A stretch of DNA of 5,898 nt from the IMG/VR virus record IMGVR_UViG_2713896773_000011; one strand, 5' to 3'. Positions 1-5,898 of this stretch are shown in pieces. Source of the stretch: a virus (lineage: Duplodnaviria > Heunggongvirae > Uroviricota > Caudoviricetes). The translations under genes and the position numbers were made by a program. The first letter of the stretch is position 1; the number at the start of each line of letters is the position of its first letter. The notes under the pieces were generated by a model, which worked only from the letters and a program-made list of their open reading frames with translations, did no database searches and was not told where the DNA came from.

Positions 1-4
1 AACC

Positions 5-556
5 GTGGGTAAGCATCACTGGAAAGTAGAAAAACAGCCTGAGTGGTACGTGAAAGCTGTCAGAAAAACTATCGCAGCGTTGCCGGGGGGTTACGCTGAA
101 GCTGCTGACTGGCTGGATGTAACAGAGAACGCATTATTTAACCGCCTTCGTGCCGATGGCGATCAGATTTTCCCGCTGGGATGGGCAATGATTTTGCAAC
201 GTGCTGGTGGAACTCACTTCATTGCTGACGCTGTGGCGCAGTCTGCAAATGGCGTCTTTGTGTCTCTTCCTGATGTCGAGGATGTGGACAACGCCGATAT
301 CAACCAACGCCTGCTGGAGGTCATTGAACAGATCGGCAGTTATTCAAAACAGATTCGTTCAGCAATTGAAGACGGTGTAGTGGAACCGCATGAGAAGACA
401 GCAATTAACGACGAGCTGTACCTCTCAATTTCGAAGCTGCAGGAGCATGCAGCACTGGTCTACAAAATTTTTTGCATTTCAGAAAGTAATGACGCCCGCG
501 AGTGTGCAGCTCCGGGCGCCGTGGCGTGTCGTGACTGTGGAGAAACTAACGCATGA
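5..556 (+). CDS. Phage early regulatory protein, CII-like / YmfL-like (tentative); 5' end may lie upstream of the window
   Basis: 183-codon ORF whose frame is open to the window edge; the first start shown is GTG at 5. Stop TGA 554-556 overlaps ATG 553 of the next gene (ATGA coupling). Family assignment is by recalled resemblance to prophage CII-type regulators and is not verified. Confidence 0.55.
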
Positions 557-891
557 ATAGTTTAACAACACACTACCGTCGCTCGCAACTGATTGCGCTT
601 CCTGTACCGGGTGGAAAAGCGAAGGTGGAGTATTGCTATGCAGTTAATGTACCAGGTGACAGGGAAATTGTAACCCACAGCTTTGCTGAGTGGGCTGTGG
701 GTGATTTCAACCGGCAGAAGGAGACAGTCCTTTGCGACAAGTTAACCGCTGGTTCAAAGATCACTACGGAGTGCCCGTCAGAGTCATTCGTTGGGAGCCG
801 GAAACACAACGGGTTATCTACCTCCGCGAAGGCTATGAGCATGAATGCTTCAGTCCGCTCGAACAGTTTCGTCGTAAATTCAGGGAAATAG
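553..891 (+). CDS. Small prophage protein of unknown function (112 aa), possibly YmfM-like
   Basis: ATG 553 overlaps the upstream stop. The ORF ends at TAG 889-891, directly followed by GAGG (891-894) and ATG 901 of the replication gene. Length and position match e14 ymfM by recall only. The C-terminal half is Ser-rich and an alternative frame is also open (see findings). Confidence 0.5.
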
Positions 892-900
892 AGGTCGGTC

Positions 901-1842
901 ATGAGCACTAAATTAACCGGCTATGTATGGGATGGTTGCGCAGCGTCAGGCATGAAATTATCCAGCGTGGCAATTATGGCACGCCTGGCTGATTTCAGTA
1001 ATGACGAAGGTGTGTGCTGGCCATCAATTGAAACCATTGCCCGCCAGATTGGCGCGGGGATGAGTACCGTCAGAACGGCTATCGCACGGCTGGAAGCAGA
1101 AGGCTGGTTAACGCGTAAGGCGCGTCGCCAGGGTAACCGCAATGCGTCGAATGTTTATCAGCTTAACGTTGCGAAGCTTCAGGCTGCGGCTTTTTCTCAA
1201 CTGTCAGATTCTGACCCGTCAAAATCTGACGCATCAAAATCTGACCCGTCAAAATTTGATGCGTCGAAATCTGGCAAAAAAGCGGGTTTTCACCCGTCAG
1301 AATCTGGCGGGGATCCGTCAGTAAAATCAAAACATGATCCGTCAGATAAAAAAACTTCTCGTCCGGACGCTTCGCAACCGGACACGCAGAAGGCTGAACA
1401 GGATTTTTTAACTCGCCATCCTGATGCGGTTGTATTCAGCCCTAAAAAGCGCCAGTGGGGGACGCAGGATGATTTGACCTGCGCACAGTGGCTCTGGAAA
1501 AAAATCATCGCCCTGTACGAGCATGCCGCCGAATGTGACGGCGAGGTGGTTCGTCCCAAAGAACCGAACTGGACAGCCTGGGCAAACGAAATTCGCCTGA
1601 TGTGTGTGCAGGATGGTCGTACTCATAAACAAATCTGCGAGATGTACAGCCGCGTCAGCCGCGATCCGTTCTGGTGCCGTAACGTGCTCAGCCCGTCGAA
1701 GCTGCGGGAAAAATGGGATGAGCTTTCCCTGCGCTTATCGCCGTCCGTCAGCACGTACACCGAAAAACGCGAAGACCCGTACTTCAAAGCCAGTTACGAC
1801 AACGTGGACTACAGCCAGATCCCGGCAGGATTCAGGGGGTGA
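901..1842 (+). CDS. Phage replication initiation protein (N-terminal winged-HTH DNA-binding domain, repeat-encoded linker, C-terminal DnaT/primosome-like domain)
   Basis: 313-aa ORF with GAGG 6 nt upstream of ATG 901. The N-terminus (SSVAIMARLADFSNDEGVCWPSIETIARQIGAGMSTVRTAIARLEAEGWL) is typical of HTH replication initiators. The central linker is encoded by tandem 15-bp repeats. The C-terminal region resembles phage replication/primosomal proteins. Confidence 0.85.
   Translation: MSTKLTGYVWDGCAASGMKLSSVAIMARLADFSNDEGVCWPSIETIARQIGAGMSTVRTAIARLEAEGWLTRKARRQGNRNASNVYQLNVAKLQAAAFSQLSDSDPSKSDASKSDPSKFDASKSGKKAGFHPSESGGDPSVKSKHDPSDKKTSRPDASQPDTQKAEQDFLTRHPDAVVFSPKKRQWGTQDDLTCAQWLWKKIIALYEHAAECDGEVVRPKEPNWTAWANEIRLMCVQDGRTHKQICEMYSRVSRDPFWCRNVLSPSKLREKWDELSLRLSPSVSTYTEKREDPYFKASYDNVDYSQIPAGFRG
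1201..1353. repeat. Iteron-like array of 15-bp direct repeats (consensus about CCGTCAAAATCTGAC) inside the replication gene; putative origin of replication
   Basis: Five contiguous in-phase 15-bp units at 1201-1215, 1216-1230, 1231-1245, 1246-1260 and 1261-1275, then degenerate copies starting at 1294, 1315 and 1339, followed by an A7 tract at 1347-1353. They encode DPSKS/DASKS pentapeptide repeats. The arrangement is analogous to lambda ori lying inside gene O. Confidence 0.6.
1834..1839 (+). promoter_or_regulatory. Shine-Dalgarno (AGGGGG) for the PerC-like gene
   Basis: AGGGGG ends 5 nt before ATG 1845. Confidence 0.5.
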
Positions 1843-1844
1843 TC

Positions 1845-2333
1845 ATGAGTCTGTTAAATGACGTTCAGAAATTCATTGAAGCCCATCCGGGGTGTACTTC
1901 CGGAGACATTGCGGATGCTTTTACAGGTTACTCACGGCAGCGCGTTCTGCAGTCAGCAAGCAAGTTACGTCAGAGTGGGCGTGTGGCTCACCGTTGTGAA
2001 GGGGATGCACGCAGACATTTCCCGCGCCAGACAAAGATATCGCCGGAGGCGGAACGGCAACCAGTTCGTGAAACCAGACCTGTGCGCAATTTCTATGTCG
2101 GCACTAACGACCCGCGGGTGATTTTGTGCCTGGCCCGCCAGGCGGAAGAACTGGAGTCCAGGGGCTTATTTCGTCGTGCTGCAACCGTGTGGATGGCGGC
2201 ATTCCGTGAAAGCCACTCCCAGCCAGAACGAAACAATTTTCTGGCACGTCGTGAGCGGTGCTTACGGAAAAGCAGCAAGCGCGCTGCATCGGGTGAAGAG
2301 TGGTATCTGTCAGGGAATTACGTGGGGGCTTAA
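1845..2333 (+). CDS. PerC-family-like transcriptional regulator with an N-terminal winged-helix-like region
   Basis: ORF with ATG 1845 preceded by AGGGGG; the six-frame track starts at GTG 1839. The C-terminal segment LESRGLFRRAATVWMAAF matches the recalled PerC/Pch hallmark (LE..GL.RRAA..W). The stop TAA 2331-2333 overlaps ATG 2333 of the next gene. Confidence 0.55.
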   Translation: MSLLNDVQKFIEAHPGCTSGDIADAFTGYSRQRVLQSASKLRQSGRVAHRCEGDARRHFPRQTKISPEAERQPVRETRPVRNFYVGTNDPRVILCLARQAEELESRGLFRRAATVWMAAFRESHSQPERNNFLARRERCLRKSSKRAASGEEWYLSGNYVGA

Positions 2334-2986
2334 TGAGTAATAAATATTGCCGGGCGCTGGTGGAACTGCGGAACAAACCAGCCCATGAACTGAAGGAAGT
2401 GGGCGATCAGTGGCGCACGCCGGACAACATTTTCTGGGGAATTAACACCCTGTTTGGCCCGTTTGTTCTGGATCTGTTCACTGATGGTGATAACGCTAAA
2501 TGTGCCGCTTATTACACTGCGGAAGACAACGCGCTGGCGCATGACTGGTCAGAACGTCTTGCGGAGCTTAAAGGTGCTGCCTTTGGTAATCCCCCATACA
2601 GCCGCGCCAGTCAGCATGAGGGGCAATACATCACCGGCATGCGTTACATCATGAAACATGCCAGTGCCATGCGTGATAAAGGCGGGCGCTATGTTTTCCT
2701 GATCAAAGCTGCCACCAGCGAAGTGTGGTGGCCGGAAGATGCAGACCATATTGCTTTTATTCGCGGGCGTATTGGTTTTGAACTGCCAGCCTGGTTTATC
2801 CCGAAGGACGAGAAGCAGGTGCCGACAGGAGCTTTCTTCGCTGGTGCTATTGCTGTTTTCGACAAGACCTGGAAGGGACCGGCAATCAGCTACATCGGGC
2901 GCGATGAACTTGAGGCATGTGGTGAGGCGTTTCTGGCGCAGGTTCGCCAGCAGGCGGAAAAACTGGTCAGGGAGATGGCGGCATGA
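2333..2986 (+). CDS. Phage orphan DNA N6-adenine methyltransferase (Dam family)
   Basis: The FGNPPYS motif (catalytic NPPY of N6-adenine methyltransferases) is present along with conserved phage-Dam-like blocks (WRTPDNIFWGINTLFGPFVLDLFTDGDN; RYVFLIKAATSEVWWPED). ATG 2333 overlaps the upstream stop in a TAATG arrangement. The track ORF begins earlier at GTG 2300, but ATG 2333 is the more likely start. Confidence 0.88.
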   Translation: MSNKYCRALVELRNKPAHELKEVGDQWRTPDNIFWGINTLFGPFVLDLFTDGDNAKCAAYYTAEDNALAHDWSERLAELKGAAFGNPPYSRASQHEGQYITGMRYIMKHASAMRDKGGRYVFLIKAATSEVWWPEDADHIAFIRGRIGFELPAWFIPKDEKQVPTGAFFAGAIAVFDKTWKGPAISYIGRDELEACGEAFLAQVRQQAEKLVREMAA

Positions 2987-3093
2987 CGACGTTAACTCAA
3001 TGCCAGCAGCAGGTGCTGGATATGCTGATTTCTTATCAGAAAGAGCGTGGCTTTCCGCCAACCAATCAGGAGGTGGCAACCATGCTGGGATAA
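2983..3093 (+). CDS. 36-aa mini-ORF resembling the N-terminal part of the LexA DNA-binding domain (helices 1-2 only)
   Basis: MTTLTQCQQQVLDMLISYQKERGFPPTNQEVATMLG aligns by eye with the LexA N-terminus ([34 protein letters not shown]) and stops before the recognition helix. ATG 2983 overlaps the Dam stop (ATGA). Confidence 0.4.
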   Translation: MTTLTQCQQQVLDMLISYQKERGFPPTNQEVATMLG

Positions 3094-3098
3094 CCAGC

Positions 3099-3422
3099 AT
3101 GCAAAACAGCAGATCGCACTGGGGTCACAGAGAACCCAGGAAGATATCAAAATGGCTGTTGCGGATGATGATTGTGCTTCACGTGCTGTGCCTGCTGCCG
3201 CTGCTGACCGGTTGCGGAAGTACGCGGACAGTTTACGTGAGCGTTCCGGTGGCACCACTGCCACCCAGCCTGACTTCTGATACTCCTGTACCGTTTATAC
3301 CTAATCCGCTGACGTATGGTGCCAGTCTGGAGCTGAATGTGAGTCTGTTGTCTGCGCTGGCTAACTGCAATCGGGATAAAGCTGATATTCGTAAAATAGA
3401 TGCAGAGAGAACTAACCATTAA
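3099..3422 (+). CDS. Lipoprotein (signal peptide with lipobox LLTG|C; Pro-rich mature region with a second Cys); function unknown, o-spanin-like or exclusion-type
   Basis: Frame open from 2739, but the plausible start is ATG 3099 (alternative ATG 3165). It has a positively charged n-region, a hydrophobic stretch (MMIVLHVLCLLPLLTGC), Gly at +2, a proline-rich segment (VPVAPLPPSLTSDTPVPFIPNP) and a downstream Cys. Confidence 0.6.
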   Translation: MQNSRSHWGHREPRKISKWLLRMMIVLHVLCLLPLLTGCGSTRTVYVSVPVAPLPPSLTSDTPVPFIPNPLTYGASLELNVSLLSALANCNRDKADIRKIDAERTNH

Positions 3423-3443
3423 GCAATAAAATTGTCAAATTAA

Positions 3444-4070
3444 TCAGTTGTCAAATGAATATACGTTAAAGGTATATGTCGACATAATTTCACCAAGTAC
3501 CTCAATACATACACTTTTTTTATGAAAATTACTGGGAAATGAACTTAGCTCCTCAAGACATTGCACATAAGTGCTGATATCACTTGCATCACGTTCAAGG
3601 AATTTCACTTGACCAAAAGAAGGAGTTTTAATCTTGGTTCTTTGCTGGATTATATGGATAAAGTGTGTAGTTGGTGAAACTATTACTCTTGAAATATCGG
3701 AAATGATGTCTTCTTGAACTTGCCGATAAAGTAAATCCTTTGGGTAATGGTGTTTAATCTCGATGGTTGCAACATTGCCATTATGTTCAGACGTTAATAT
3801 CGACTGGTTATAAAGTGATATGTCAACAGCGCCGATACCGAGTTTTGGATGCTCACTTAAAGCAGTTAGTGTGCTGATTTGATTGAGTATAACAACTAAC
3901 TCATCACGTATTTGTGTTTCATGTTTGCGATTGTAGAAGTAGCCATTCAGTTCATTTAACTTTTTATGCATCCTATCGTGACTAATTGCTTCGATCAGTA
4001 AATCCTGAATCATACTTTTCTCTAGGTAATCCGAACGGTTGTAAGTGACAGTATTGTGCTGGCATGTCAT
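3444..4070 (-). CDS. Hypothetical protein (208 aa) with a possible PD-(D/E)xK nuclease-like signature
   Basis: Long ORF in AT-rich DNA, second gene of a minus-strand pair. Candidate motif residues are D56/E57 (RDELVV), D83 (GIGAVDISL) and E104-I-K106 (ATIEIKHH). No good SD precedes ATG 4070; an internal ATG (Met20, about 4013) follows a purine-rich stretch. Confidence 0.6.
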   Translation of the reverse strand: MTCQHNTVTYNRSDYLEKSMIQDLLIEAISHDRMHKKLNELNGYFYNRKHETQIRDELVVILNQISTLTALSEHPKLGIGAVDISLYNQSILTSEHNGNVATIEIKHHYPKDLLYRQVQEDIISDISRVIVSPTTHFIHIIQQRTKIKTPSFGQVKFLERDASDISTYVQCLEELSSFPSNFHKKSVCIEVLGEIMSTYTFNVYSFDN

Positions 4071-4113
4071 TAATATGTAAAGGTATTGTGAATGCCAGAA
4101 AGATAACGAAGTA

Positions 4114-4449
4114 TCATCGATAGAAAAACTTTACAGCCCACTCGTAAACAGCTTTGTAAATCGGTTCATGGTAAATACTATCGATACTATTCAGATGTGC
4201 GATCATCGCCTCCACAGTTGTAGTGGTTGTTTCTAATATTTCGATTATTGCAGGGCGGTCATCATCTTCATCGAAGTATTCGAACAGCAGTACAGGTTTA
4301 CCATGCAATTCAGCATCTGAGACTCTAAGGTTACAACTACCGCTCAACTCAAAGTGAATTTTGTAATTACCTTCTACAGAATGGCCTACGGGGAAAAAGT
4401 ATAGGGTGTCATCTTTGTTCAAAAGCCATTCCCATTCATAACTATTCAT
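4114..4449 (-). CDS. Hypothetical small acidic protein (111 aa from ATG 4449; 117 aa if ATG 4467)
   Basis: First gene of the minus-strand pair. A strong SD (AGGAG, plus-strand coordinates 4457-4461) sits 7 nt upstream of ATG 4449. It contains an acidic run (FEYFDEDDDRP) and a Thr5 tract. I recognise no family. Confidence 0.6.
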   Translation of the reverse strand: MNSYEWEWLLNKDDTLYFFPVGHSVEGNYKIHFELSGSCNLRVSDAELHGKPVLLFEYFDEDDDRPAIIEILETTTTTVEAMIAHLNSIDSIYHEPIYKAVYEWAVKFFYR

Positions 4450-4456
4450 TTGTGAA

Positions 4457-4461
4457 CTCCT
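4457..4461 (-). promoter_or_regulatory. Shine-Dalgarno (AGGAG) for the small minus-strand gene
   Basis: Minus-strand sequence reads ATGAACAGGAGTTCACAAATG; AGGAG is 7 nt upstream of the second ATG. Confidence 0.6.
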
Positions 4462-4536
4462 GTTCATTGAGTTTCAACAACTATCAACTACATCCAGCGA
4501 AGCATAAAAGATCGTTTATGGCAAAACCGGAATGGA

Positions 4537-4974
4537 GTGCGATTCGATTCTGAGAAGGGTGCCACGTACCGACACTGGATGGGAACGGGGACTGTCGGTG
4601 TGATGATTGCCGGCAGTGACCTGATTAATCCCATTCCGGAAGAATCAACGGAAACGGCGGCAAGACAACATATCGGGCCACTGGCCCCGGTGGCAGGCTC
4701 TGATTTGTATGTATTCAGGCCGGTGGCGCATAAAGTGGATTTTCATATCCGTGTGACGCCGGACACACCGGAAATACGGGCTGCCATCACCGCCGAGTTG
4801 CGTTCGTTCCTGCTGCGTGATGGTTATCCGCAGGGAGAACTGAAGGTGTCACGTATCAGTGAAGCGATTTCCGGTGCGAACGGGGAATACAGCCATCAGT
4901 TGCTTGCACCGGCGGACAATATCTCCATTGCAAAAAATGAACTGGCGGTACTGGGGACGATTTCATGGACGTGA
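4537..4974 (+). pseudogene. Baseplate assembly protein J-like (P2 gpJ / Mu gp47 family), C-terminal fragment only
   Basis: About 145 codons ending ...AVLGTISWT, against roughly 300 aa expected for J-family proteins. The frame is open back to 4471 with no ATG and no SD, starting at the edge of the low-GC segment. It is followed by an I-like gene and a tail fiber gene in the canonical J-I-H order. Similar to the e14 jayE remnant by recall. Confidence 0.65.
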
Positions 4975-5549
4975 CAAACGATGATTACATCCGTCTGTTG
5001 TCGGCACTGTTGCCGCCCGGTCCGGCGTGGTCAGCCAGAGATCCGGCGATTGCCGGTGCGGCACCGTCATTAACCCGCGTTCATCAGCGTGCGGATGCCC
5101 TGATGCGGGAGCTGGATCCGCGCACCACTACTGAACTGATAAACCGCTGGGAGCGTCTGTGCGGTCTGCCGGATGAATGTATTCCCGCAGGGACACAGAC
5201 CCTTCGCCAGCGTCAGCAACGACTGGATGCGAAGGTTAACCTGGCGGGCGGCATCAATGAGGATTTTTACCTTGCACAGCTTGCTGCCCTGGGCAGACCA
5301 GACGCTACCATCACGCGATACGACAAAAGCACGTTCACCTGCTCATCTGCCTGTACTGACGCGGTGAATGCGCCGGAATGGCGGTATTACTGGCAGGTCA
5401 ACATGCCAGTCGCCACCAACACCACCTGGATGACATGTGGCGATCCCTGTGATTCCGCGCTGCGCTTCTGGGGGGACACCGTTGTCGAGTGTGTGCTTAA
5501 CAAACTCTGCCCGTCGCATACCTATGTGATTTTTAAATATCCGGAGTAA
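4965..5549 (+). CDS. Phage tail/baseplate protein I-like (YmfQ / DUF2313, Mu gp48-like)
   Basis: 194-aa ORF whose ATG 4965 overlaps the upstream gene end (ATGGACGTGA). The N-terminal LLPPGPAW motif and the position between the J-like gene and the tail fiber gene support the call. Confidence 0.8.
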
Positions 5550-5552
5550 TCC

Positions 5553-5898
5553 ATGCATCGTATAGACACGAAAACCGCGCAGAAGGATAAGTTCGGCGCG
5601 GGTAAGAACGGTTTTACCCGTGGTAACCCCCAGACTGGCACGCCTGCCACCGATCTGGATGATGACTACTTTGACATGTTGCAGGAGGAGCTTTGCAGCG
5701 TGGTGGAGGCATCCGGTGCCAGCCTGGAGAAGGGGCGGCACGATCAGTTGCTTACCGCACTTCGCGCGCTGCTGTTAAGCCGCAAGAATCCGTTTGGCGA
5801 TATCAAATCGGATGGCACGGTGAAAACGGCTCTCGAAAACCTTGGTTTGGGAGAAGCAGCTAAAAGGAATGTAGGTACAGGGGCGAATCAGATACCTG
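5553..5898 (+). CDS. Phage tail fiber protein, N-terminal part (3' end beyond window)
   Basis: ATG 5553 lies 3 nt after the upstream stop, with GGAG at 5541-5544. The N-terminus ([47 protein letters not shown]) resembles the conserved tail-fiber N-terminal domain. The ORF runs off the window. Confidence 0.75.

Follow-up and report, generated by a model that had tools for sequence, protein, structure and literature searches.

The window analyzed here, a stretch of 5,898 nucleotides (IMG/VR virus record IMGVR_UViG_2713896773_000011), is a heavily deleted SfII/e14-like prophage, and among the genes left in it is one on the minus strand that probably encodes a nuclease-like protein of 189 amino acids (aa). 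On balance, we favor the interpretation that this protein is a member of an unnamed PD-(D/E)xK family and serves the prophage as a self-sufficient defense or exclusion nuclease.

The preliminary description of this DNA, made from the letters alone, placed the gene in a minus-strand open reading frame (ORF) of 208 aa at 3444-4070. That ORF is present in the window, but its start at 4070 is probably not the one used. We consider that the real coding sequence (CDS) probably runs from M20 at 3444-4013, because the position equivalent to M20 (MIQDLL…) is the start in almost all of 31 close homologues, all from Enterobacterales, and in the RefSeq annotation of the identical E. coli protein (WP_000613842.1; 189 aa, starting MIQDLL), and because an AG-rich stretch lies 5' of ATG 4013 while ATG 4070 has no Shine-Dalgarno sequence or other ribosome-binding site ahead of it. 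Residues are numbered here according to the 208-aa ORF; subtracting 19 gives the position in the likely mature 189-aa protein. A sigma-70-like candidate promoter, TTTACA-17-CACAAT (4081-4053, minus strand), lies inside the N-terminal extension about 40 nucleotides (nt) upstream of the M20 ATG. If real, it would supply the nuclease gene with a promoter of its own; in a promoter scan, shuffled sequences contained more such sites than the region itself, which makes it a lead without statistical support.

The gene is real and under purifying selection. It encodes a product 100% identical to that of the intact prophage in E. coli strain T16R; homologues at 48 to 73% identity occur in Yersinia, Citrobacter, Enterobacter, Klebsiella, Pectobacterium, Providencia, Proteus, and Morganella; the ratio of nonsynonymous to synonymous substitution (dN/dS) against the Yersinia orthologue is 0.15, synonymous sites being saturated in more distant pairs; and the segment is carried by 73 of 5426 complete E. 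coli genomes (~1%).

Invariant residues and the predicted fold

The preliminary description had recognized a possible PD-(D/E)xK signature in this protein, made up of a helix acid (D56/E57), D83, and E104-x-K106. Residues K49, E51, D56, E57, D83, E104, and K106 all lie where it put them, and its codon positions are correct. It had also cautioned that so short a motif may arise by chance, and this caution is borne out: of 5000 residue shuffles of the protein, 61% contained the pattern D-x(10-30)-(D/E)-x-K and 56% the complete arrangement acid…D…(D/E)xK, so the motif by itself carries no weight. E104-I105-K106 is the sole (D/E)xK site of the protein.

The close family, with its 48 invariant columns, is little informative. 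When the family profile was run with HMMER against all of 1.8 billion representative proteins, 48 scored at E <= 0.001; a second profile search yielded 74, with members reaching Flavobacteriaceae and Acinetobacter. Conservation was read from alignments of first 39 and then 68 sequences (17 to 66% identity to the query; mean column identity, 19%). In both alignments exactly five columns are invariant: K49, E51, D83, E104, and K106. Thus D83, E104, and K106, whose conservation among homologues the preliminary description had named as a check, are all retained; the probability that these three would be among five invariant columns of 189 by chance is ~9e-6, or ~9e-5 for any three of the five residues originally singled out. 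The remaining part of the proposed signature did not hold: in the wider family, position 56 holds either Asp or Asn and position 57 varies. The acid conserved in the first core helix is instead E51, accompanied by K49, and E51 is the likely first acid of the metal site. E73, P75, and D112 are nearly invariant in both alignments, as is D125 in the 39-sequence alignment only, and these residues may line the same putative active site.

The features of the gene and its candidate catalytic residues are as follows.

3444-4013, minus strand: probable true CDS of the nuclease-like protein, 189 aa, starting at M20 of the 208-aa ORF; stop codon at 3444-3446.
4014-4070, minus strand: N-terminal 19 codons of the 208-aa ORF, probably untranslated; lacking in almost all homologues.
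3918-3926, minus strand: K49 (3924-3926) and E51 (3918-3920), an invariant K-x-E at the N terminus of the predicted core helix (residues 48-65).
3822-3824, minus strand: D83, the invariant candidate "PD" aspartate at the start of predicted core strand 2, directly ahead of residues 84-87.
3753-3761, minus strand: E104-I105-K106, the candidate "(D/E)xK" in predicted core strand 3 (residues 99-108), with E104 and K106 invariant.

Structure prediction points in the same direction. An AlphaFold2 model built on the family alignment (mean pLDDT, 82.7; pTM, 0.83) has two N-terminal helices followed by a helix (48-65), three strands (69-72, 84-87, and 99-108), a second helix (116-127), and a final strand (136-146). 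This predicted topology, alpha-beta-beta-beta-alpha-beta, is that of the PD-(D/E)xK core and is the order that the preliminary description had proposed to look for. Its guesses at secondary structure agree with the model as well: D56 and E57 fall in helix 48-65, D83 precedes strand 84-87, and E104-x-K106 sits in strand 99-108. In the model E51 is at the helix start, D83 comes immediately before strand 2, and E104-x-K106 is within strand 3.

Profile searches fit this picture. The protein matched phrog_12494, to which no function is assigned, over its full length. When single family members were compared with Pfam, the recurring weak matches were mostly to nuclease families and covered the region of the E…D…ExK motif. 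The best, given by a homologue of 47% identity, was to HSDR_N (22.2 bits against a cutoff of 25.1; E, 1.4e-4); others were to PDDEXK_4 (E, 1.2e-3 and 0.013), PDDEXK_9, DpnII-MboI, DUF234, and Tox-REase-7, and we take all six families to belong to the PD-(D/E)xK clan. None of these matches, including those of individual members to HSDR_N, PDDEXK_4, and PDDEXK_9 that span E…D…ExK, exceeded the curated Pfam threshold, and the window protein itself gave none. Such subthreshold similarity fits a new family within the superfamily rather than membership in a named one. We consider the PD-(D/E)xK fold very probable, and it seems likely, if a step less secure, that the protein is a catalytically active nuclease.

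A single gene in a shared insertion site

In the intact phage, the accessory genes lie between the spanin genes and the HNH and terminase genes, antisense to the late operon. Which genes neighbor the nuclease gene varies among E. coli, Enterobacter, Providencia, Yersinia, Citrobacter, and Proteus. In all six groups, however, its site is between the lysis genes and terminase or other neighboring accessory genes, and it is antisense to the flanking phage genes wherever those are called. In phage lambda this slot holds bor, which is likewise low in GC and an antisense insertion. Lambdoid phages have a recognized site for immune genes just ahead of the packaging module; phi80 taiEcA/atiEcA share the genomic slot and the low GC content, and offer a precedent for immune genes there (PMC11364771). 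Neither Bor, a lipoprotein, nor Tai, which blocks tail assembly, is a nuclease, unlike what is predicted for the window protein. Homology of either accessory gene to Tai or Ati was rejected at BLAST sensitivity, with no match in 50,697 isolated phage genomes.

The second accessory gene of the window lies immediately upstream of the nuclease gene.

4114-4449, minus strand: gene for a 111-aa acidic protein (pI 4.6), starting at M7 of a 117-aa ORF with AGGAG ahead of it; matches phrog_14397, to which no function is assigned.

The preliminary description had cast the nuclease as the effector of a cassette, and a toxin-immunity pair, in which a nuclease toxin is restrained by the acidic 111-aa protein much as in toxin-antitoxin systems, would account for the arrangement in E. 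coli. There the two genes are adjacent and co-oriented, separated by 43 bp if ATG 4070 is used or by 100 bp if translation starts at M20; many antitoxins and immunity proteins are small and acidic, as is the upstream product; and the Enterobacter homologues, too, are preceded by a small ORF with many acidic residues. The Enterobacter ORF is, however, unrelated in sequence to the 111-aa protein, and the Citrobacter nuclease gene has no co-oriented neighbor at all. At none of the nine close loci of the nuclease outside E. coli (four in Enterobacter, two in Proteus, and one each in Providencia, Yersinia, and Citrobacter) is the 111-aa gene present within 5 to 6 kb, and tblastn found it beside the nuclease only in the E. 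coli prophage. Conversely, the nuclease is missing from seven of seven loci encoding a homologue of the 111-aa protein at 65 to 70% identity, the 111-aa gene standing alone there in the same lysis-terminase slot of other Enterobacterales prophages. Because each gene occurs without the other in other prophages, they do not form a two-gene cassette; they are independent accessory genes that share one insertion site in E. coli. A conserved, co-inherited adjacent partner of the kind expected for a toxin-antitoxin or nuclease-immunity pair was not found at these loci, the distribution rejects an obligate two-gene cassette, and we regard a toxin-immunity pair as quite improbable. The 111-aa protein carries the motif FEYFDEDDDRP, and its AlphaFold model is poor (pLDDT, 53.6).

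Nor is there a linked methyltransferase. None is adjacent to the nuclease gene in E. coli, Enterobacter, Providencia, Yersinia, Citrobacter, or Proteus or at most of the distant loci, the exception being hsdM/hsdS in Tamlana, and a classical restriction-modification system is therefore rejected. The protein could still be a solitary type II-like restriction endonuclease whose host sites are guarded by an unlinked methyltransferase, either host Dam, which the Enterobacterales hosts possess, or the prophage methylases. The closest folds appear to be those of orthodox type II enzymes; the intact prophage has both a Dam-like N6-adenine methyltransferase and a 350-aa DNA methyltransferase, the Dam-like gene being kept in the window at 2300-2986; one Tamlana homologue lies directly upstream of hsdM-hsdS; and solitary restriction enzymes with distant protective methylases are on record (PMC3488263). 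Against this, no methyltransferase lies within 5 to 6 kb at the Enterobacter, Providencia, Citrobacter, Yersinia, and Proteus loci, methylase neighbors are lacking for most distant homologues, and the gene for the 350-aa methylase, the sole large one of the parental phage, has been deleted from the window while the nuclease remains 100% intact. We think a type II-like enzyme guarded by an unlinked methylase unlikely as the explanation.

The distant homologues are also single genes, and several lie among defense genes. In Tamlana haliotis (L025, 5001-8521), a 195-aa distant homologue named "Restriction endonuclease" by UniRef is found 80 nt upstream of hsdM-hsdS and directly after kwaA/kwaB (Kiwa), and no hsdR is present within 5 kb. 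Two closer homologues give near-threshold matches to HSDR_N, the nuclease domain of HsdR, and in this single case the homologue may be a small nuclease that works with a type I methylase/specificity module. Another distant homologue adjoins AbiH, and further ones adjoin WYL regulators, a DUF2779 protein, and RNase T-like and PDDEXK_4 proteins. In a subfamily of about 310 aa, a C-terminal DUF6508 extension is fused to the nuclease-like domain; its members include a protein of Acinetobacter halotolerans (L026, 5001-5936), P0085, P0105, P0108, P0110, P0112, and P0127. In a Proteus vulgaris prophage (L010, 118-3018), the nuclease homologue adjoins two large uncharacterized genes on the opposite strand, of 579 and 369 aa, in the same hotspot; these may be another defense cargo.

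Proposed function and competing explanations

We infer nuclease activity, DNA as the substrate, expression in the lysogen, and a role in defense. In the mechanism that we propose, the active site would be formed by E51 from the core helix, D83 at the start of strand 2, and E104-x-K106 in strand 3. Should the site work like those of SwaI and EcoRV, one or two Mg2+ ions would be bound by the acids at the scissile phosphate of the DNA, with K106 positioning the attacking water. Neither a methyltransferase nor an antitoxin nor any other partner is conserved beside the nuclease gene, which suggests that the enzyme works on its own, without any of these. The gene is a low-GC moron, antisense to the late operon; its slot and its status as an antisense accessory gene make expression from the lysogen, and cleavage of incoming foreign DNA, the most likely course, with superinfection exclusion or defense as the outcome. 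Host DNA might be spared through dependence on DNA modification, as in type IV enzymes, through an unlinked methylase such as Dam, or through activation only upon infection. Taken by itself, a defense or exclusion role is put forward tentatively, at slightly less than an even chance.

The closest comparison is with the SwaI/EcoRV/BglI branch of type II restriction endonucleases, and by analogy the protein would work like a small enzyme of this kind. Members of the branch (R.SwaI, EcoRV, HincII, BglI, and SfiI) are of similarly small size. The structure of SwaI shows a typical two-metal PD-(D/E)xK site of D76, D93, and K95, each confirmed by mutation, and SwaI, HincII, and EcoRV share only 9 to 14% identity with one another (PMC5415892); for enzymes of this sort, values of about 10 to 14% are typical. 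The window protein has D64, E85, and K87 (189-aa numbering) in the same order, with very similar spacing and chain position, so that by position SwaI D76 corresponds to D83, and D93/K95 to E104/K106, in the 208-aa numbering. It differs from the branch in that its second acid is Glu rather than Asp, and in having an extra invariant K-x-E at the helix start, no linked cognate methyltransferase, and no detectable sequence relationship. The gene also resembles those of prophage-borne type IV enzymes (McrA of e14 and Mrr) in being a solitary nuclease gene without a methylase, in an e14/SfII-like cryptic prophage. McrA is an HNH enzyme, and Mrr and other type IV enzymes have a separate modification-reading domain; Pfam detected no such domain in the 189-aa protein. 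Modification dependence of the type IV sort would explain how an unpartnered endonuclease is tolerated.

Several observations weigh against our proposal that the protein is a self-sufficient defense nuclease. At threshold, the window protein matched nothing in Pfam, NCBIfam, PADLOC, or the sequences of the Protein Data Bank (PDB), and a search of the PDB with the 39-sequence profile also gave no match. The spatial clustering of E51, D83, E104, and K106 is deduced only from the topology of the model. Among 50,697 isolated phage genomes, tblastn and blastn found neither the nuclease gene nor the 111-aa gene. A constitutively active solitary endonuclease should be toxic. The distant homologue in Acinetobacter has an ordinary chromosomal context, and other distant homologues lie beside copper-resistance genes. 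Finally, Foldseek searches of the PDB and BFVD returned nothing significant, the best PDB matches (E, 0.15) being Alba and methyltransferases. Another idea is that the protein is not a nuclease at all, being instead a generic alpha/beta protein (a Rossmann methyltransferase-like protein or an Alba-like binder) or an inactivated PD-(D/E)xK protein that only binds DNA. The sole residues invariant in 68 sequences are nevertheless the acid/acid/acid-x-Lys set of a metal-dependent nuclease site, residues that inactivated folds usually lose. The glycines of "LGIGAVD," which might mimic an S-adenosylmethionine (SAM) loop, are conserved in the close family only and not in the 39- or 68-sequence alignments; with no conserved glycine-rich SAM loop, a methyltransferase (Rossmann) fold is rejected, and a protein without nuclease activity is in our view very improbable.

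A further possibility is that the nuclease serves the phage life cycle, whether by degrading host DNA, as a structure-specific or recombination nuclease, or as a homing endonuclease of the free-standing type. Like a mobile endonuclease, the same gene occurs at one intermodule junction of otherwise dissimilar lambdoid phages, whose terminase and lysis types vary; the structural matches include Hjc and Cas4; and a GIY-YIG gene adjoins one group of distant homologues (L013 and L014). Yet the flanks that a homing enzyme would need to recognize are not conserved, the antisense orientation relative to the late operon fits expression in the prophage, the gene has been kept in a prophage no longer capable of lytic replication, and distant homologues are found in defense islands outside phages. 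Such a role appears to us improbable.

In its boldest form, the proposal of a defense nuclease would make the gene a new single-gene antiphage defense: a minimal restriction-type endonuclease of about 190 aa that dispenses with a methyltransferase or immunity protein, has a rule of its own for telling foreign from self, and is mobile among lambdoid prophages and defense islands. We hold this to be possible but rather doubtful. Foreign DNA would then be told apart by phage DNA modification, by the state of entering or replicating DNA, or by host Dam marks; the range would extend from Enterobacterales to Flavobacteriaceae; and in some lineages the protein might act as a stand-in nuclease for HsdM/HsdS modules apparently without HsdR, as in Tamlana. 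PADLOC-DB v2 has no family for the nuclease or the 111-aa protein at E <= 10, the accessions of neither are listed in the DefensePredictor supplements, and the nuclease accession and PHROG identifier were found in no publication searched. New PD-(D/E)xK families turn up regularly, and this one, new and unnamed, belongs to a superfamily that is very well known; it is not a new class of enzyme. What our analysis adds is a specific proposed function for a family (phrog_12494) that lacks a model in Pfam, NCBIfam, and PADLOC and whose annotation is "hypothetical" everywhere, although ~1% of complete E. coli genomes have it, as do prophages of several other Enterobacterales. If the protein is a defense nuclease, a very small single-gene system joins the catalogue. 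The question also arises of how the host tolerates an unpartnered restriction-type enzyme.

The deleted prophage

The accessory genes reside in a short segment of the parental prophage, bounded by two deletion junctions.

3088-4571, no strand assigned: 1.48-kb segment kept from the parental prophage, 99.8% identical by blastn to the intact T16R prophage (L001).

Within this segment are Rz1/LysC, the 3' half of Rz, and both low-GC accessory genes with about 100 bp of their upstream sequence; the GC content is 36.8% at 3444-4467 against 53 to 56% in the flanks. Compared with the intact prophage, positions 1-3092 are the early region, with ymfL, a replication protein, a PerC-like regulator, and the Dam-like methyltransferase, and 4567-5896 are the 3' end of the baseplate J gene followed by ymfQ. 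In the intact prophage, the sequences flanking the segment map 6.6 kb and many kilobases away. At the first junction (3088-3092) the early region meets the middle of Rz, and at the second (4567-4571) sequence from upstream of the HNH gene meets the 3' end of baseplate J; microhomology at either is limited to a few bases. The deletions removed the holin, the endolysin, the 350-aa DNA methyltransferase, the terminase, the head genes, and most tail genes. Both accessory genes are intact after these two deletions, which stripped away most of the prophage, and the locus illustrates how accessory genes may be selectively kept during prophage decay. The exact architecture of the window was found in no complete E. 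coli genome.

Because the holin and endolysin are deleted, the lysis module is nonfunctional. Rz (3047-3422, plus strand) is truncated, its N-terminal half lost at the deletion junction, and the embedded frame for the Rz1/LysC lipoprotein is apparently intact. In the early region, the replication-protein gene (901-1842) contains four copies of a 15-bp tandem repeat, TCTGACCCGTCAAAA, at 1210-1273, which encode PSKSDASKSD peptide repeats and resemble an iteron-type origin embedded in lambda O-like genes.
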